Below, piece by piece: positions 38,359 to 45,437 of a stretch of 64,000 nt of DNA. Each line of letters starts with the position of its first letter. Positions within the stretch are counted from its first letter, which is position 1. The position numbers and the translations under genes are program-made. The stretch lies in sequence record OR062945.1. The stretch is one strand, 5' to 3'. The stretch is from Escherichia phage 308Ecol101PP. Under the pieces are notes generated by a model. The model was not told the origin of the DNA and searched no databases. It saw only the letters and a list, made by a program, of their open reading frames with translations.

Positions 38359-40572
38359 ATGATTATTGAAACGGCTAAAGAAACGATTATTGGTTCAGGC
38401 GGTAAGAGCACAGCATTTACTATTCAAGGCAATAGCAAAGTTTATAAGATTTTGTCTAATGACCTTTATACAAACAAAGAATTGGCTTGTGTACGTGAAT
38501 TAATCACAAACTGTATTGATGGGCAAATTCTTAATGGTTGCACTGATAAGTTTATTGTTCAGGCTCCAGGTCGTTTAGACCCACGTTTTGTAGTTCGTGA
38601 TTTTGGACCTGGTATGAGTGATTTCACTATTCGTGGTAATGACGAAGAGCCAGGAATTTATAACTCATATTTTGCTTCAACTAAAACATCGAGTAACGAT
38701 TTCATTGGTGGATTCGGACTCGGCTCTAAAGCTCCATTAGCATATACTGATACGTTTAACCTTACGTCTTATCATAATGGTGAAGTTCGTGGTTACGTAA
38801 TCTACCAAGATGACACAGGTCCACAGATTAAGCCGACCTTTGTAGATAAGATGGGTCCTGATGACCGTACGGGTGTAGAAGTAGTTGTACCGGTTAACCC
38901 GGAAGATTTTGAAAAGTTTGCATCCGAAATTGCATATGTTATGCGTCCTCTAGGTGATATTGCAGAAGTTCGTGGTGTTAAAGATATTAAATACTTCCCA
39001 GAATTTGATGATGTATATTTGGCCAAGGAAGCTCCATGGGGTGAACGTGGTAATATCATGGCTGTTTATGGCGGTATTGTATATCCAATCGGAAGTGTTA
39101 TTAAAGAACAAACATGGATGATGACACGATGCACTACAGCTTATATTAAATTCCCAATGGGTGAACTAGATGTTGCTCCGTCTCGCGAAGCATTGTCATT
39201 TGATAAACGTACAGTAGCAAATATCCATAAACGCGTTGCAGAAATCGATGCTAAATTGTTCGCTGAAGATTCTAAGAAATGGATTGATTGTAAATACCCA
39301 CGACATGTGTTCCGCGAAATTGATTCTCTTGGCTATACCGCTCGTAAATACATGGAAAAGGCCGGGTCTAATATTGAATCACTGAAATACTCTAAAGAAC
39401 AACTAACTTATTCTGAGTTGTACAAACGTTTTAAAATGGGACCTGAGTGGTGTAATCTTGGTGTCGTATACGATATCGTTGAATCCCCTCGTCTTCGTCG
39501 TATTCGTGAAAGTGGTAGCTCATCATCAACCATTTCAATTAACAGCCTGATTGGCATTAACATTAAAAACGTTGAAATTGTTATTGACGATGTTAAGGGA
39601 CGCGTTCCATTAATGCGAGCTCTTAATTCAATTGAAATGTCTAAAGACGAGGTTAAATTATCCGGTAAAGTTCCACGCGGTTTTGGTAAAAGCGTACTAT
39701 TCGTTGACCCTACAGACGAAGATGCAATGAAACTTCTGGAACGCCTTAAAGTTATCTTTGATGGCGACAACATTAACATGTACAAGACTTCAGAGCTTTT
39801 ACAAATCGTTAAGCCATGGATTGAAGTCAGGAAACGGACTAATGAGCCTCGTCCTAAATCCCCGAGTGCTCATCGATTCTTTAAGAATGAAAACGATGTT
39901 TGGGTATCAGAAGACCTCTTTATTCCGGCAAGTGAAGCAGATGAAATCCAAGGTTATGCTATAGTTCGTAATCGTTCTAATGCTGAATGTCTTGACGCAG
40001 ATAAAGGTTGGTTGAACTATGACTCCAATTTCTTGACCCGTATTGCTGATTTGTCAGGTATTAAAGAGTTCACTGTAGTTCGTCCACAGATTGCTAAGAA
40101 AGTTCGTAAACTTGGTGAAGTAGAATGCTTGTTCGAAAAATCAATTAATGACTATATTACGCTAATTGATAAAGTGGATTATGATGAGTATGTATCACCA
40201 AGTCGTAGAGCACAGCCTTATTTGAATCATATTACTCGTAACGAAGAGCTTAACTTCCTTAGTAAGTATTTTAGCTCTAAGAACAAAGAAATCAGTAAAG
40301 ACTTTGCAAAACTCTCAACAGTAAATAATCGTTGGGGATGGAATCGATTCGCAGGTGCTACTAATACAGACCTGAATAAGAAGTTAGAATTGTGTGCTAA
40401 AATTTTCGATAAGCTTAAAGATAATGCTTACGATAATGATGATAAAATGGTTATTGAATTCGAAACCAATTATCATATTGTGTCAGAATACATGGGACGA
40501 CGTGGTACTCTTTCCAAAGAACAGGTCGCTCAAATCGTTAAATTCATGAAGGCCGTGGAAGCGGCCAAATAA
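38359..40572 (+). CDS. rIIA: rIIA protein
   Basis: 737 aa; N-terminal GHKL-type ATPase-like motif (VRELITNCIDG, DFGPGM); followed by rIIB; T4 gene order. Confidence 0.8.
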   Translation: MIIETAKETIIGSGGKSTAFTIQGNSKVYKILSNDLYTNKELACVRELITNCIDGQILNGCTDKFIVQAPGRLDPRFVVRDFGPGMSDFTIRGNDEEPGIYNSYFASTKTSSNDFIGGFGLGSKAPLAYTDTFNLTSYHNGEVRGYVIYQDDTGPQIKPTFVDKMGPDDRTGVEVVVPVNPEDFEKFASEIAYVMRPLGDIAEVRGVKDIKYFPEFDDVYLAKEAPWGERGNIMAVYGGIVYPIGSVIKEQTWMMTRCTTAYIKFPMGELDVAPSREALSFDKRTVANIHKRVAEIDAKLFAEDSKKWIDCKYPRHVFREIDSLGYTARKYMEKAGSNIESLKYSKEQLTYSELYKRFKMGPEWCNLGVVYDIVESPRLRRIRESGSSSSTISINSLIGINIKNVEIVIDDVKGRVPLMRALNSIEMSKDEVKLSGKVPRGFGKSVLFVDPTDEDAMKLLERLKVIFDGDNINMYKTSELLQIVKPWIEVRKRTNEPRPKSPSAHRFFKNENDVWVSEDLFIPASEADEIQGYAIVRNRSNAECLDADKGWLNYDSNFLTRIADLSGIKEFTVVRPQIAKKVRKLGEVECLFEKSINDYITLIDKVDYDEYVSPSRRAQPYLNHITRNEELNFLSKYFSSKNKEISKDFAKLSTVNNRWGWNRFAGATNTDLNKKLELCAKIFDKLKDNAYDNDDKMVIEFETNYHIVSEYMGRRGTLSKEQVAQIVKFMKAVEAAK

Positions 40573-40581
40573 GGAAACATT

Positions 40582-41529
40582 ATGTACAATATTAAATGCT
40601 TGTCCCAAGAAGAACAGTTAGAAGCTTACGGCCTGGTTGAATCAGGCAAATGGACTCGTAAAGAAATTGCCGATTACTTCGACATTTCAACAGATACTCT
40701 TCGTAAGATTGTTAAGAATTTTAAAGCAGAAGGCGTTGTCCCTGAAGCAAACGATGCCTCTTATGTAATCGAAGAAGTTCCAGAAAATGATGAACCTATT
40801 ATCGGCGGACATCGTCCTGAAATCGTATGGAACGCGTCATCTAAATTTATTTCAATTATTGAAGGACGCGTAGCATACAATGCGACTCCATCAAGTCATG
40901 CAAATTTTGAAGAAATTAAAGCTAATCTGGTCGCAGGAAACCTTAGTAAAGCTGTCGAACTTATTAACATCAAGAAAGCTATTAGTAAGTTTGTTGACGG
41001 TAATGTTGTTATTGAAGGTGGTAGTTTATTTTATCAAGGTATAGAGATTCGTTCTGGCCTGGTTAATCGTATTATTGATTCTATGGAAAAAGGCGAAGAC
41101 TTTAAATTCTATCTACCGTTCCTTGAAAACCTGTTAGAAAACCCAAGCGAAAAAGCTGTACAACGTTTATTCGACTTCTTGGTTGCAAATGATATTGAAA
41201 TCACTGAAGATGGGCATTTCTACGCGTGGAAAGTAGTTCGTAAAGATTATTTAGATTGCTATAGCGGTACATTTGATAACTCACCAGGTAAAGTTGTTTC
41301 AATGCCTCGTACTCGTGTTAACGATGATGATACACAAACCTGCTCCCGTGGTCTACATGTTTGCGCTAAATCGTATATTCGTTACTTTGGTTCTAGCTCA
41401 GATAAAGTTGTTAAGGTTAAAGTTCATCCACGTGATGTTGTGTCCATCCCAGTTGACTATGGCGATGCTAAGATGCGTACTTGTCGTTATGAAGTAATTT
41501 CAGACGTTACTGAATTATTTGCAGAATAA
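40582..41529 (+). CDS. rIIB: rIIB protein
   Basis: 315 aa immediately downstream of rIIA; size and position as in T4. Confidence 0.75.
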   Translation: MYNIKCLSQEEQLEAYGLVESGKWTRKEIADYFDISTDTLRKIVKNFKAEGVVPEANDASYVIEEVPENDEPIIGGHRPEIVWNASSKFISIIEGRVAYNATPSSHANFEEIKANLVAGNLSKAVELINIKKAISKFVDGNVVIEGGSLFYQGIEIRSGLVNRIIDSMEKGEDFKFYLPFLENLLENPSEKAVQRLFDFLVANDIEITEDGHFYAWKVVRKDYLDCYSGTFDNSPGKVVSMPRTRVNDDDTQTCSRGLHVCAKSYIRYFGSSSDKVVKVKVHPRDVVSIPVDYGDAKMRTCRYEVISDVTELFAE

Positions 41530-41875: not shown

Positions 41876-42352
41876 ATGAAGGTGAAGATTGCTGACACTG
41901 CTCGGTATTCCCTGAGCCAAAATCCTGACCAAAACAAAGAAGATGTAGTTCGACGTTGTAAGGTTGCGGTCTTTGCAGAGTATGTAGTAGCAAATTGGCT
42001 AGACGGATATGTTAATAAAGGTATTGAAGACGTAGAAGACCCGTACACGTATGCATGGGACGTGTTAGCCCATCCCAAGTATTGTGGAATTCGTGTAGAA
42101 GTCAAGACACACCAGATAGATTCTAAATGGATTTCTGTTACCACAGGATACAGTGGTGATTATCCAGGTGGCAACGGAATCAACATAGGGCCCTTCTTGA
42201 ACCATCGAGTCGCAGATTGCATTATTATATTAGATGTCAAAGAAACCTCACCTGACGTCTTCTCTTATTCTATAAAGTTCGTGGGAGACCATGAAGACCT
42301 AAAGAAAATCGTCCGCAAGAGCAACTACAACGGGTGGTATCTTCAACTTTAA
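41876..42352 (+). CDS. hypothetical protein (158 aa) in the T4 denB position
   Basis: ATG 41876 after stop of preceding ORF; ORF track begins at 41732; identity with DenB not verified. Confidence 0.35.
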   Translation: MKVKIADTARYSLSQNPDQNKEDVVRRCKVAVFAEYVVANWLDGYVNKGIEDVEDPYTYAWDVLAHPKYCGIRVEVKTHQIDSKWISVTTGYSGDYPGGNGINIGPFLNHRVADCIIILDVKETSPDVFSYSIKFVGDHEDLKKIVRKSNYNGWYLQL

Positions 42353-42363
42353 TTTCATAAAAG

Positions 42364-42393
42364 TGTTTACAACTAAGTAGGACTATGATATAG
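42364..42393 (+). promoter_or_regulatory. early promoter
   Basis: GTTTAC, 18-nt spacer, TATAGT, AGTCCTATC. Confidence 0.55.
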
Positions 42394-42420
42394 TAGTCCT
42401 ATCTAAAAGAGGATAACATC

Positions 42421-42684
42421 ATGAAATTTAAATTTTTCTACGCAAAACATAAAGTAACAGGCGAATTTGTTTCAATGTACAACACTGCAGATGACGAAGG
42501 GATGATTTATACCCATTTGGGTCTATCTCATTGGGACTCAGACGTGCCTTATATGTCATCTGAAGCCGAAATAACTCGTCTGGTTAATGGACATATGAAC
42601 TACCATTTTAGTGTTATTCTTTCTAAAGACCTTAAAGAGGTTATCAACAAAGGATATATGGAACTCGCGGAAGTTGAGATATGA
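42421..42684 (+). CDS. hypothetical protein (87 aa)
   Basis: SD AAGAGGATAA. Confidence 0.5.
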   Translation: MKFKFFYAKHKVTGEFVSMYNTADDEGMIYTHLGLSHWDSDVPYMSSEAEITRLVNGHMNYHFSVILSKDLKEVINKGYMELAEVEI

Positions 42685-42767
42685 GCTCTAAAATGTGGAT
42701 CGGAATATGGTTGCTTAGTATCCCTATGATTTGTATAGTATTTTCAATTGTATTGAGGTACTTATGA
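42681..42767 (+). CDS. hydrophobic micro-protein (28 aa)
   Basis: ATGA-coupled; MSSKMWIGIWLLSIPMICIVFSIVLRYL. Confidence 0.3.
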   Translation: MSSKMWIGIWLLSIPMICIVFSIVLRYL

Positions 42768-42874
42768 AAAATGCACTTATTATTGTACTAAGAACAATTT
42801 GTGATACGGGTTTTTACATCGCATGTTCGTTCACTGGATCATGGTTGGCTTTAACATATTTTAATGTAATTTAA
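42764..42874 (+). CDS. hydrophobic micro-protein (36 aa)
   Basis: ATGA-coupled, SD GAGGT; MKNALIIVLRTICDTGFYIACSFTGSWLALTYFNVI. Confidence 0.3.
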   Translation: MKNALIIVLRTICDTGFYIACSFTGSWLALTYFNVI

Positions 42875-42876
42875 TT

Positions 42877-42906
42877 GTTTACAACAAGGTAGGATTATGG
42901 TATAGT
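42877..42906 (+). promoter_or_regulatory. early promoter
   Basis: GTTTAC, 18-nt spacer, TATAGT, AGTCCTAC. Confidence 0.55.
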
Positions 42907-42934
42907 AGTCCTACTGAAACATGAGGAACACAAA

Positions 42935-43135
42935 ATGGCTAAGCTTTTTAAAGATGTTGAAATTGGTGAAAAATTTGTTCTGAATAATGGTCAGCAGCTT
43001 ATTCGTGTAGCTTCTATCGCCGGACAAACTCATAACTGTATCGCCACAACGTGTTGGACTCGATTCTTTATTGAAGATGACACTGAATGTTTAACTATTG
43101 AAGAGCTTTTTGAACGTTCTGATATAGCCGAATAA
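42935..43135 (+). CDS. hypothetical protein (66 aa)
   Basis: SD GAGGAACACAAA. Confidence 0.45.
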   Translation: MAKLFKDVEIGEKFVLNNGQQLIRVASIAGQTHNCIATTCWTRFFIEDDTECLTIEELFERSDIAE

Positions 43136-43137
43136 AA

Positions 43138-43167
43138 TTGTACAAACTCTTGAGAGCAGAGTATAAT
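43138..43167 (+). promoter_or_regulatory. early promoter
   Basis: TTGTAC, 18-nt spacer, TATAAT; -10 lies between 8-bp inverted repeat arms. Confidence 0.55.
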
Positions 43168-43211
43168 GCTCTCATGGATTACAAAAACATTAATCAATTG
43201 AGGAAATTAGC

Positions 43212-43658
43212 ATGTCCAAATATTTAACTCGTAAAGACCTTCTGGCAGTTGGCGGTGAAGTTGTTGCAGTAGTTCGTAATGGCGAATACGGTTCTGAAGT
43301 TTCTAAAGAGTTTCGTTCTCGTGAAGGTTTTTACTTCTTTGTTAAAGGTTCATCTGACTGGCGTCAAGTTGCAGCACGATTCTTTGTAGGACGTCAACGT
43401 TCTAAACAAGGGTTGGATGCAATTCTTTCTCACATTCGTCAAGGCCGTTCGCAACTAGCCCGTACTATGGGCACTAACAATATTGAATATGATGTAATCT
43501 TTGTTGCAGCTAAGAACATGAAACCCCTGACTACTGGTTATGGTAAAGGACAATTGGCTCTGGCATTCACTCGCAATCATACATCAGAATATCAAACACT
43601 CACTGAAATGAACCGTCTTCTGGCAGATAATTTCAAATTCGTTCTGCAGAGTTACTAA
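43212..43658 (+). CDS. ndd: Ndd nucleoid disruption protein
   Basis: 148 aa; [29 protein letters not shown]..., [31 protein letters not shown] match T4 Ndd as recalled. Confidence 0.75.
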
Positions 43659-43710
43659 TTTATACGGGCCTATTAAGTTAGGCCTTTAATTTATTTTTGA
43701 GGTAATTAAA

Positions 43711-43860
43711 ATGGTAGCATGGATTATTGCATTGCTGTGTTGGTCGTTTTTATTCGTTAACACTTTAGTTACAGGCGAAACAACAGTATTTCAACAGGCT
43801 GTGTCACAAGGTACCTTAGCGGTCTTAGCTCTTCTTAACGTATTAAAAGGCGAGCAATGA
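43711..43860 (+). CDS. small membrane protein (49 aa)
   Basis: SD GAGGTAATTAAA; MVAWIIALLCWSFLFVNTLV...; position resembles the T4 ac/ndd.x region. Confidence 0.4.
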   Translation: MVAWIIALLCWSFLFVNTLVTGETTVFQQAVSQGTLAVLALLNVLKGEQ

Positions 43861-43997
43861 TTAAGAAAATCTTAGCAGGAGCCTTCGGGCTCTTGTTTTT
43901 GCTTACGGTTCTGTACTACGGTGTGATGTTTGGGCTAATCCAAGTAGTGCTTTTCATTTCAGATGTTATAATGGTTATTCGTTCATTAATATGGTGA
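43857..43997 (+). CDS. small membrane protein (46 aa)
   Basis: ATGA-coupled; MIKKILAGAFGLLFLLTVLYYGVMFGLIQVVLFISDVIMVI. Confidence 0.4.
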   Translation: MIKKILAGAFGLLFLLTVLYYGVMFGLIQVVLFISDVIMVIRSLIW

Positions 43998-44001
43998 AAA
44001 T

Positions 44002-45327
44002 ATGCAATTGAATTCTCGTAATCTAAAAAGTATTATTGATAACGAAGCCTTAGCATATGCGATGTACACCGTTGAAAACCGTGCAATCCCAAACATGATT
44101 GATGGATTTAAGCCGGTTCAACGTTTTGTGGTTCATCGTGCGTTAGATTTGGCTCGTGGTAATAAAGAAAAATTTCATAAACTTGCGTCAATTGCAGGCG
44201 GTGTTGCAGATTTAGGTTATCACCATGGTGAATCTTCTGCACAAGATGCAGGTGCATTGATGGCTAACACATGGAACAACAACTATCCGTTGTTAGATGG
44301 CCAAGGCAACTTTGGTTCTAGAACAGTCCAAAAAGCTGCAGCATCTCGTTATATTTTTGCTCGTGTAAGTAAAAATTTCTATAACGTATATAAAGATACT
44401 GAATATGCTCCAGCTCATGAAGATAAAGAACACATTCCACCAAAATTCTATCTTCCTATTATTCCGACAGTTCTTTTGAATGGTGTCTCTGGTATTGCAA
44501 CCGGTTACGCAACAAATATTCTGCCTCATAGTTTTAAATCAGTCAAAAAGGCTGTATTACAAGCTCTTCAAGGTAAAAATGTCACTAAGCCAAAAGTTGA
44601 ATTCCCGGAATTCCGTGGTGAAGTACATGAAGTTGATGGGCGTTATGAGATTCACGGAACATATAAGTTCACATCTCGCACTCAAATGCAGATAACTGAA
44701 ATCCCGTATAAATTCGACCGTGAAACGTATGTGAGTAAGGTTCTTGACCCGTTGGAAGACAAAGGTCTAATCTCATGGGAAGATGATTGCGGTGAACACG
44801 GCTTTGGATTTAAGGTGAAGTTCCGTAAAGAGTACTCGCTTCCTGATGATGAAGAGCTACGTCATGAAAAAATCATGAAAGATTTTAGTCTCATCGAACG
44901 TCGTTCACAAAACATCACAGTGATTAATGAAAAGGGTAAATTAGCGGTCTATGATAACGTAGTAGACTTAATCAAAGATTTTGTTGAAGTCCGTAAGACT
45001 TACGTTCAGAAACGTATTGACAACAAAATCCTTGAATCTGAAAAAGCATTTAAACTTGCTTTTGCTAAGGCGCACTTCATCAAAAAAGTTATCAACGGTG
45101 AAATTGTGATTCAAGGCAAGACTCGTAAAGCTTTGACTGAAGAGCTAGCACAAATCGAAATGTATAAAGAACATGTCGATAAACTGGTAGGTCTTAACAT
45201 CTTCCATATCACTTCCGATGAAGCACGTAAATTAGCAGAAGAAGCTAAAGCTAAGAAAGAAGAAAATGAGTATTGGAAGTCTACTGATGTTGTGACAGAG
45301 TACACTAAAGACTTGGAGGCACTTTGA
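44002..45327 (+). CDS. 52: gp52 DNA topoisomerase II medium subunit (GyrA-like)
   Basis: 441 aa; GyrA-type N-terminal region (IPNMIDGFKPVQRFVVH), active-site region; T4 gene order. Confidence 0.9.
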   Translation: MQLNSRNLKSIIDNEALAYAMYTVENRAIPNMIDGFKPVQRFVVHRALDLARGNKEKFHKLASIAGGVADLGYHHGESSAQDAGALMANTWNNNYPLLDGQGNFGSRTVQKAAASRYIFARVSKNFYNVYKDTEYAPAHEDKEHIPPKFYLPIIPTVLLNGVSGIATGYATNILPHSFKSVKKAVLQALQGKNVTKPKVEFPEFRGEVHEVDGRYEIHGTYKFTSRTQMQITEIPYKFDRETYVSKVLDPLEDKGLISWEDDCGEHGFGFKVKFRKEYSLPDDEELRHEKIMKDFSLIERRSQNITVINEKGKLAVYDNVVDLIKDFVEVRKTYVQKRIDNKILESEKAFKLAFAKAHFIKKVINGEIVIQGKTRKALTEELAQIEMYKEHVDKLVGLNIFHITSDEARKLAEEAKAKKEENEYWKSTDVVTEYTKDLEAL

Positions 45328-45403
45328 GTGCCCTAGCCTTAGGATTTCTCAGTGCAATAGCTGCACTAGTGATTTGGCTGTATTGGTTGGACAAACATGA
45401 TTA

Positions 45404-45437
45404 GGGAGCTTCGGCTCCCTTTTGTGCATTTTTTTTT
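45404..45437 (+). terminator. intrinsic terminator, UUCG hairpin plus T-rich tract
   Basis: GGGAGC-TTCG-GCTCCC followed by TTTTGTGCATTTTTTTTT. Confidence 0.75.

Follow-up and report, generated by a model that had tools for sequence, protein, structure and literature searches.

Genetic work on the bacteriophage T4 protein Ac dates from the 1960s at the latest, judging by the citations of a 2025 preprint, and ac sets both the acriflavine sensitivity and the dye accumulation of infected cells (10.1101/2025.06.30.662393). Deletion of ac gives acriflavine resistance, as does the single substitution G38R, and Ac expressed alone sensitises E. coli to acriflavine (10.1101/2025.06.30.662393). The same preprint proposes that T4 Ac blocks the AcrAB-TolC efflux pump (10.1101/2025.06.30.662393). 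Such a block is a hypothesis even in T4, and a literature search returned no paper with direct evidence for an interaction between Ac and AcrB.

In T4 the genes 52.1, ac and ndd.2 to ndd.6 have transcripts of the early class (PMC9697503 Table S2), and the corresponding small proteins were undetected by shotgun proteomics in T4 (PMC9697503), which is expectable for such small hydrophobic peptides. The T4 deletion sa-delta-9, which removes 52.1 through denB, still gives 50% of wild-type phage; the stimulation of phospholipid (PG) synthesis is lost and the phage yield is down (PMC6071114). The block containing these genes is non-essential and deletable in T4. The start of the middle promoter P52 in T4 is listed at 165227 (PMC2988021 Table 1), and no functional study of ndd.6 or 52.1 was found in the literature searched. 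T4-type phages also carry PeSL (promoter-early + stem-loop) cassettes (PMC2839356, PMC4122927), and the 2014 paper on these cites the ndd.x region as one where PeSLs mediated the exchange of ndd.4 and ndd.5 (PMC2839356, PMC4122927).

Layout and annotation of the locus

The window, i.e. the whole stretch of 64,000 nucleotides analysed here, derives by its sequence from a Mosigvirus, an RB69-like T4-type phage, and over the stretch described below it shows 99.8% identity to Escherichia phage ST0. Between rIIB and gene 52 four ATG ORFs, here w28, w36, w49 and w46, are situated on either side of ndd (Table 1), at the positions where a previous sequence-only reading had placed them, and ndd, w49, w46 and gene 52 follow each other in this order on one strand. 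The translational coupling suggested by that reading was confirmed by ATGA stop/start overlaps between w87 and w28 (42681-42684), w28 and w36 (42764-42767) and w49 and w46 (43857-43860), together with Shine-Dalgarno-like motifs upstream of every start (GAG for w28, GAGGT for both w36 and w49, and GGCGAG for w46).

The ORFs had also been taken to be unannotated, which does not hold, as all four are annotated CDSs in the HX01 RefSeq record (NC_018855) and in phage 55, and the RefSeq record of RB69 lists the 49-aa ORF as Ac, a name also used in HX01, and the 46-aa ORF as gp52.1. The annotations of HX01, RB69, phage 55 and T4 concur with the identities given to the four ORFs here. That such genes are easily missed was a correct remark; the GenBank record of ST0 is without w28, w36 and w46, RB69 is without w28 and w36, and in many other phage records one to three of the four are missing.

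Our preferred explanation, which we hold with good confidence, is that the four ORFs are genuine early genes and represent the Mosigvirus version of the T4 block of small membrane proteins, with w28 as Ndd.6, w49 as Ac, w46 as gp52.1 and w36 as a genus-restricted orphan. The counterpart in T4 would be the non-essential stretch between rIIB/denB and gene 52. By homology these genes are already known, three of them being related to named T4 genes and w36 being catalogued as PHROG 18561.

Table 1. Positions of the ORFs and of neighbouring genes and elements in the window.
Feature	Position	Strand	Description
rIIB	40582-41529		
Early promoter + hairpin cassette (PeSL-like), copy 1	42348..42401	+	TTTACA-N17-TATAGT, extended TG
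w87 (RB69ORF270c)	42421..42684	+	Soluble 87-aa protein; first gene of the coupled unit w87-w28-w36
w28	42681..42767	+	28 aa, hydrophobic peptide with a predicted single helix, T4 Ndd.6 homologue
w36	42764..42874	+	36 aa, moderately hydrophobic, Mosigvirus-restricted orphan
Early promoter + hairpin cassette (PeSL-like), copy 2	42860..42913	+	Upstream of the ndd.1 homologue
ndd	43212-43658		
Terminator-like hairpin	43666..43685	+	Between ndd and ac, in the T4 stp slot; terminator scan
w49	43711..43860	+	49 aa, predicted two-helix peptide, T4 Ac homologue
w46	43857..43997	+	46 aa, very hydrophobic, gp52.1 / DUF7396
Putative MotA-type middle promoter for gene 52 (T4 P52 equivalent)	43945..43972	+	Within the 52.1 coding sequence; predicted from motif
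gene 52	44002-45327		Topoisomerase medium-subunit gene
Fifth hydrophobic micro-ORF	45324..45404	+	26 aa; its TTG start overlaps the stop codon of gene 52; annotated in HX01

Membrane character, conservation and expression

The best 19-residue Kyte-Doolittle means were 2.61 for w28, 2.19 for w49 and 2.52 for w46, in agreement with the earlier description of the ORFs as hydrophobic membrane peptides, while w36 with 1.59 is borderline. Since AT-rich DNA yields hydrophobic random ORFs, some or all of the four could be open by chance in such intergenic DNA and give no functional peptide, and among the 285 small ATG ORFs of the window a mean of ≥1.9 was indeed reached, if only by 7.7%. The borderline hydropathy of w36, its restriction to one genus and its frameshift in PECP20 would fit such an origin, as would the lack of any detected peptide in T4 proteomics, but as the T4 transcripts are early and the peptides nevertheless undetected, absence from mass spectrometry is a weak refutation. 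Against chance frames stand PHROG profile matches for all four ORFs (E = 1.9e-11 to 1.5e-28), dN/dS values within Mosigvirus of 0.21-0.53 and thus below 1 in 4/4, the Shine-Dalgarno motifs and ATGA coupling described above, and the genetic phenotype of T4 ac. Even w36 (dN/dS 0.26) is intact in 14/15 Mosigvirus sequences, the indel in p000y being an in-frame deletion of 3 nt. When comparing between genera, w28, w49 and w46 have a pS of 0.6-0.9 and keep their amino acid motifs despite saturated synonymous sites; judged from these substitutions, the cross-genus comparison shows that selection acts on the peptides. We therefore regard an origin as chance frames as extremely unlikely.

Three sigma-70-type early promoter-like sites were identified at 42366-42394, 42878-42906 and 43139-43167, and in our preferred explanation transcription would start from these, with the translation of each peptide coupled to that of its upstream neighbour. 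In the host inner membrane each peptide would form one or two membrane-inserted alpha-helices and may modulate host envelope proteins, with probably no enzyme among them. Searches of NCBIfam, PADLOC and Rfam gave no meaningful match for the four ORFs.

The sequence-only reading suggested that the peptides might affect lysis timing or superinfection exclusion. In favour of this, their genes are neighbours of rIIA and rIIB, whose early products associate with the membrane and have links to lysis phenotypes, and T4 employs the small membrane proteins Imm, Sp and RI for exclusion and lysis roles. However, no holin, antiholin, Imm, Sp or RI family match was obtained for any of the ORFs in Pfam, PHROGs, NCBIfam or PADLOC (E ≤1), and the one review found that covers T4 sa-delta-9 is silent on lysis and exclusion (PMC6071114), so that we find this role very unlikely.

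The w87-w28-w36 module

w28 is 54% identical to T4 Ndd.6 across 28/28 residues and matches the profile of phrog_8851 (E = 1.9e-11), which T4 Ndd.6 matches as well. Its reading frame is intact in 15/15 Mosigvirus sequences (dN/dS 0.21), and homologues are present in Gaprivervirus VR26 and Gelderlandvirus CF-SP2, where the motif W..W.LSIPxIC is kept and synonymous sites are saturated. A tblastn search with w28 retrieved Mosigvirus-type records only, which reflects the limited sensitivity of so short a query, since T4 Ndd.6 is 54% identical. PHROG 8851 carries the label 'outer membrane protein', in T4 tables worded 'predicted outer membrane protein' (PMC9697503 Table S2), and this label on the Ndd.6 family is an old localisation prediction. 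The hydropathy profile of w28 is compatible with a single alpha-helical span, and the predicted hydrophobic helix of 28 residues fits the inner membrane; its SIPxIC motif, as far as the sequence tells, is no canonical lipobox.

For w36 the profile of phrog_18561 was matched over 36/36 positions (E = 1.5e-28), and tblastn, again limited in sensitivity by the short query, gave 152 records, all of them Mosigvirus-type. Among 1.84 billion proteins w36 makes up one representative cluster, and going by these searches PHROG 18561 is limited to Mosigvirus. Homology of w36 to a T4 gene was considered and rejected as no T4 protein matched, including Ndd.5 in the same slot and Ndd.2 of the same length.

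Upstream of w28 the soluble w87 matches phrog_2390 (E = 2e-41) with a dN/dS of 0.06, and in VR26, too, an ndd.6 homologue comes next after the w87 homologue. The module is flanked on both sides by the two cassettes of Table 1, a direct repeat of 54 nt with 83% identity for which shuffled sequences gave zero matches, and these are the only copies within the window. w36 would reside in a promoter-bracketed module prone to shuffling. A scan of IMG/VR with Ndd found only three loci, which are near-identical. At the other end of the locus the micro-ORF after gene 52 is preceded by a GGAGG motif, and five other Mosigvirus sequences retain it.

The Ac homologue

w49 matches phrog_2501 with E = 2.9e-22 over 48/50 positions, the value for T4 Ac being 2.2e-25. 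The two proteins share 34% identity across 38 aa, including the motifs CW and (S/T)VFxQAxxQG, and in the alignment G34 of w49 corresponds to T4 Ac G38. An AF2 model of w49 (pLDDT 79) proposes a helix at residues 2-21, a break and a second helix at 24-45. A search for homologous proteins with w49 gave nothing beyond proteins of T4-type phages.

The earlier suggestion that the peptides affect permeability or dye sensitivity gains a footing for w49, by analogy with the acriflavine sensitivity and dye accumulation set by T4 Ac. Ac is the only one of the four with a phenotype on record, and this by homology. As the identity to T4 Ac is only 34%, and as the Ac homologues of the preprint all have ≥93% nucleotide identity (10.1101/2025.06.30.662393), acridine sensitivity dependent on w49 is extrapolated from T4 Ac. 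By the same homology Ac would raise the intracellular level of acridines and similar cationic dyes.

gp52.1 and the predicted promoter of gene 52

w46 covers 1-46 of 46 positions of Pfam PF24129 (DUF7396) with E = 2.4e-22 and 79.3 bits (gathering threshold 27), and also matches phrog_3595. T4 gp52.1, of the same length, is 72% identical (pS 0.74, dN/dS ~0.06), and a search for homologous proteins with w46 returned only proteins of T4-type phages. In 8/9 genera sampled 52.1 is located directly upstream of gene 52, the exception being Acinetobacter phage Mokit; T4, VR26, Kp15882, KaAlpha, COW86c, CHI14 and CF-SP2 all have this arrangement. The AF2 monomer model shows one helix at residues 2-45 (pLDDT 97), a model that does not separate a single-pass peptide from a hairpin.

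When analysing the coding sequence of w46 a putative MotA box, TGCTTTT (43948-43954), was identified, followed by a 12-bp spacer and a TATAAT -10 box (43967-43972). The predicted start at ~43979 lies 23 nt ahead of the gene 52 ATG, the same distance as in T4, where this ATG is at 165204. The 52.1 ORF would in our preferred explanation double as carrier of a MotA-dependent promoter from which gene 52 is transcribed at middle times.

This arrangement could also mean that the role of the region is mainly in cis, ac and 52.1 serving to deliver ribosomes to gene 52 through translational coupling and 52.1 to house the middle promoter, with the peptides themselves minor. In the window 4 nt separate the stop of w46 (43997) from the gene 52 ATG (44002), and this distance is 4-12 nt in all genera having a 52.1 homologue. 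The MotA box and the -10 box moreover coincide exactly with the codons of VLFISDVIM, the best-conserved part of the 52.1 peptide, and the nucleotides of the motif are retained in six other phages of five other genera. A third-position test on amino-acid-invariant codons (4/7 vs 4/11, p = 0.63) did not separate constraint on the DNA from constraint on the peptide, and leaves the promoter unsupported as the cause of the conserved stretch. Residues L19, Y20, Y21, G22, V23, F25, S43, L44 and W46 are invariant in an alignment of 13 sequences and all lie outside the promoter, while synonymous sites in 52.1 vary between genera. A middle promoter would also free gene 52 from upstream translation at middle times, and the ac phenotype depends on the peptide, as seen from the missense substitution G38R and from expression in trans. 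A mainly cis-acting role is for these reasons judged improbable.

A more far-reaching possibility is that the peptides act as a toolkit, dedicated to binding machines of the host inner membrane. AcrB would then be plugged or distorted by Ac, and gp52.1 would act on a partner of its own, e.g. a host transporter or the phage topoisomerase, which gp52.1 might tether to the membrane; one small peptide may explain the lost stimulation of phosphatidylglycerol synthesis in the T4 block deletion. A specific partner for gp52.1 is suggested by its constant co-location with gene 52 and by a helix conserved at the peptide level. As a whole we regard this toolkit as speculative and rather unlikely.

Significance

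As these genes are catalogued and Ac has long been studied genetically, the locus carries little weight as a discovery. Its practical value is modest and lies in the uneven annotation of micro-genes among near-identical phage records, which affects pangenome and orphan-gene counts, and in the divergence of Mosigvirus Ac, which offers a natural test of the residues needed for the proposed efflux-pump interaction. Mutagenesis of 52.1 must reckon with the predicted middle promoter inside its coding sequence.

Comparison with known systems

In E. coli the inner-membrane peptide AcrZ (49 aa) binds AcrB and modulates the substrate range of the pump. Like Ac it is a helical membrane peptide of ~50 aa, and both might act on AcrAB-TolC, a possible functional analogy taken as a lead only. 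The two differ in that Ac is proposed to inhibit the pump, whereas AcrZ modulates its substrate range.

Compared with T4 Ndd.6, w28 has the same length and a similar slot after denB, and it is likewise coupled by ATGA to the small ORF that follows; it differs in that it, as its VR26 homologue, sits behind an 87-aa soluble protein absent from T4. w49 resembles T4 Ac (51 aa) in PHROG 2501, in size class, in the predicted two-helix shape and in its slot, just ahead of 52.1 and gene 52. It is 49 aa long because CAA replaces the usual Mosigvirus TAA stop, which creates the ATGA overlap with 52.1, and between ndd and ac the window has a hairpin in place of the stp of T4, marked as putative terminator in the WFbE185 and G53 records.

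The flanking cassettes resemble the PeSL cassettes of T4-type phages as promoter and hairpin repeats bracketing a module of small ORFs in the ndd.x region, with TTTACA-N17-TATAGT as the promoter of both copies. In the window the hairpin lies over and downstream of the -10 element, whereas in PeSLs the stem-loop reportedly precedes the promoter. Finally, w46 shares with T4 gp52.1 both the position directly upstream of gene 52 and the P52 middle promoter, in the window a predicted one, inside the coding sequence, and the variation between the two proteins is confined to the N-terminal half.

Gene order and family assignment

The four hydrophobic micro-ORFs w28, w36, w49 and w46 (named by their length in amino acids) are members of known families, in a region of T4-type genomes that is well described, dispensable and plastic. 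The sequence-only reading had claimed four translationally coupled ORFs, and all were found with the positions and sizes it gave, with ATGA overlaps at w87/w28, w28/w36 and w49/w46. The start codon of gene 52 lies 4 nt from the w46 stop and a purine-rich, Shine-Dalgarno-like motif is found 5–9 nt upstream of the start of each of the four ORFs. The ac stop codon, usually TAA in Mosigviruses, is CAA in the window (43858–43860) as well as in HX01, ST0 and one metagenome contig, which makes Ac one Gln longer, at 49 aa, and gives rise to its ATGA overlap with 52.1. The 1.8 kb region 42300–44100 shares 99.8% identity with Escherichia phage ST0 and 95–99% with ~150 other RB69-like Mosigvirus phages.

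Features of the region from rIIA to downstream of gene 52
Feature	Position	Strand	Remark
rIIA	38359-40572	+	
rIIB	40582-41529	+	
denB	ends at 42352	+	
54-nt direct repeat, copy 1	42348-42401		
w87	42421-42684	+	87 aa
w28	42681-42767	+	
w36	42764-42874	+	
54-nt direct repeat, copy 2	42860-42913		
w66	42935-43135	+	66 aa
ndd	43212-43658	+	Pfam Phage_T4_Ndd, E = 4.9e-89
ndd-ac spacer	43659-43710		
Terminator-like hairpin	43666-43685		between ndd and ac
w49	43711-43860	+	
w46	43857-43997	+	
MotA-type middle promoter of gene 52, predicted	43945-43972		inside w46
MotA box	43948-43954		TGCTTTT
-10 element	43967-43972		TATAAT
gene 52	44002-45327	+	
Fifth micro-ORF	45324-45404		26 aa, TTG start
GC-rich hairpin	45404-45420		after fifth micro-ORF

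When the small ORFs of the annotated T4 region were translated and compared with the window, T4 Ndd.6 showed 54% identity to w28 over all 28 residues, Ndd.1 43% to w66, Ac 34% to w49 over 38 residues and gp52.1 72% to w46, while w36 had no match among them. Profile searches placed w28 and T4 Ndd.6 in phrog_8851, w49 (2.9e-22) and T4 Ac (2.2e-25) in phrog_2501 and w46 and gp52.1 in phrog_3595, and w46 scored 79.3 bits against Pfam DUF7396 (cut-off 27). In the case of w36 the profile match was phrog_18561 (1.5e-28), tblastn gave 152 records, all of Mosigvirus type, and one cluster was all that an exhaustive HMMER search returned from 1.84 billion representative proteins; as judged from these matches, w36 is restricted to Mosigvirus.

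The ORFs had also been described as unannotated, which does not hold since the records of HX01 (RefSeq NC_018855) and phage 55 annotate all four; coverage is uneven elsewhere. In HX01, w28 is named "outer membrane protein" and w49 "Ac acridine resistance protein", and in phage 55 w28, w36 and w49 are putative transmembrane proteins and w46 a hypothetical protein. That such ORFs are easily missed was a fair remark, as ST0, the closest relative, has a GenBank record without w28, w36 and w46, and the RB69 RefSeq record has ac and gp52.1 but neither w28 nor w36. Clear homologues of Ndd.6 in VR26 (L009, 1140–1223) and CF-SP2 (L012, 2258–2347) and of gp52.1 in CF-SP2 (L012, 3214–3348) are yet unannotated in GenBank. 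Several phage records (MN864145, OP870146, OL631257, PQ368522) call Ndd "naphthalene 1,2-dioxygenase", which looks like a propagated annotation error.

Conservation and predicted structure

In a set of 15 Mosigvirus sequences, every colinear locus has undamaged w28, w49 and w46 frames; the exceptions are RPN187, where the ac slot holds a different gene, and the metagenome contig IMG_a, which stops within w46. The w36 frame is intact in 14 of the 15, with a frameshift in PECP20 and a 3-nt, in-frame deletion in p000y. Pooled dN/dS values, which are based on small counts, were 0.21 (w28), 0.26 (w36), 0.21 (w49) and 0.53 (w46), and 0.06–0.10 for larger neighbour genes. As evidence of selection on the peptides, comparisons between genera are more telling than these within-Mosigvirus ratios: 52.1 keeps 72% of its residues relative to T4 at a saturated pS of 0.74 (ratio ~0.06), and the Ndd.6 family motif MSSK.W...W.LSIPxIC..F is kept in T4, VR26 (Gaprivervirus) and CF-SP2 (Gelderlandvirus) at pS 0.6–0.9.

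The membrane character proposed for all four peptides was upheld by Kyte-Doolittle analysis for w28, w49 and w46 (best 19-residue means 2.61, 2.19 and 2.52) and is borderline for w36 (1.59). Since a mean of 1.9 is reached by 7.7% of the 285 small ATG ORFs of the window, hydrophobicity alone is weak evidence in such AT-rich DNA. AlphaFold2 predicted two helices for w49 (residues 2–21 and 24–45, break at G22-E23, pLDDT 79), similar to the two-helix ESMFold model of T4 Ac (preprint 10.1101/2025.06.30.662393), and for w46 a single unbroken helix (residues 2–45, pLDDT 97) exceeding the length of one membrane span. In the membrane w46 may be a hairpin, a tilted helix or an oligomer, arrangements that a monomer model does not tell apart.

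Ac and the function of the block

Deletion of ac, a determinant of acriflavine sensitivity, makes T4 resistant, as does Ac G38R, and E. coli becomes more sensitive to acriflavine, and apparently also to ampicillin, when Ac is expressed by itself (10.1101/2025.06.30.662393). That Ac would block AcrAB-TolC is put forward in that preprint as a proposal and restated in a 2026 PNAS paper as an assumption. The homologues surveyed in the preprint were those with at least 93% nucleotide identity. When w49 is aligned to T4 Ac, the CW pair of helix 1 and the (S/T)VFxQAxxQG motif are kept, including the Gly matching G38. The suggested effect on dye sensitivity would apply to one peptide, w49, by homology with T4 Ac. 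Searches of Pfam, PHROGs, NCBIfam and PADLOC gave no support for roles in lysis timing or exclusion. In general terms the interpretation was right: these are small membrane peptides, one of them tied to dye sensitivity.

T4 with the deletion sa-delta-9, which takes out 52.1, ac, stp, ndd, ndd.1 to ndd.6 and denB, still gives a yield 50% of that of wild-type phage but loses the post-infection stimulation of phospholipid synthesis; the ndd.1 to ndd.6 products are described as unknown in the same 2018 review (PMC6071114). Time-resolved omics of T4 lists early transcripts for 52.1, ac, stp and ndd.2 to ndd.6, their proteins being listed as not detected (PMC9697503), and the papers searched included no functional study of 52.1 or ndd.6.

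Comparison of six loci (L008, L009, L011, L012, L014, L022) revealed that the ac slot is interchangeable between phages. In Karamvirus, Jiaodavirus and Gaprivervirus it holds an unrelated hydrophobic protein of 54–60 aa with two predicted hydrophobic segments, CF-SP2 has both Ac and this unrelated protein, and Mosigvirus RPN187 (L022, 2576–2737) carries the VR26-type protein in place of Ac. A metagenomic ENA protein of 47 aa (P0016) joins, in frame, residues 1–14 of a T4-type Ndd (MKYMTVTDLNNAGA, differing from T4 at one position) to the last 33 residues of gp52.1, apparently through a natural deletion that took out ndd, stp and ac. A fifth hydrophobic micro-ORF overlaps the gene 52 stop and has GGAGG 6 nt upstream; it is annotated in HX01 and conserved in five further Mosigviruses, and is unrelated to the hydrophobic micro-ORFs in the same slot of T4, VR26 and CHI14.

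Promoters, repeats and comparison with T4

The predicted promoter inside w46, with a 12-bp spacer between MotA box and -10 element, is on sequence grounds the equivalent of the T4 middle promoter P52. Its predicted start (~43979) lies 23 nt upstream of the gene 52 ATG, as does the mapped P52 start (165227 against 165204; printed as 65227 in the table of a review, PMC2988021, and taken as a dropped digit). Both elements are conserved as DNA sequence in T4, VR26, Kp15882, KaAlpha, COW86c and CHI14, and in CF-SP2 bar one change. They overlap VLFISDVIM, the most conserved peptide stretch of 52.1/DUF7396, and part of the family conservation may therefore be at the DNA level. A third-position test at this stretch did not tell DNA-level and peptide-level constraint apart (p = 0.63). 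Outside the promoter L19, Y20, Y21, G22, V23, F25, S43, L44 and W46 are invariant in an alignment of 13 sequences, and the synonymous sites of their codons vary between genera.

Three σ70-type promoter matches of T4-early character are located upstream of w87, w66 and ndd. Among Mosigviruses no stretch varies more than the spacer between ndd and ac (pairwise difference 0.12); where T4 has stp, the window has a terminator-like hairpin instead. The first two promoters lie inside a 54-nt direct repeat (copies 83% identical; no matches in shuffled sequences), each copy containing TTTACA-N17-TATAGT and a hairpin, and the two copies flank the w87-w28-w36 module. This combination of promoter and stem-loop is similar to the PeSL cassettes of T4-type phages, proposed to shuffle gene modules, for which a 2014 paper gives the promoter form TTTACW-N17-TAYWAT and, as an example, an ndd.4/ndd.5 exchange in this same region.
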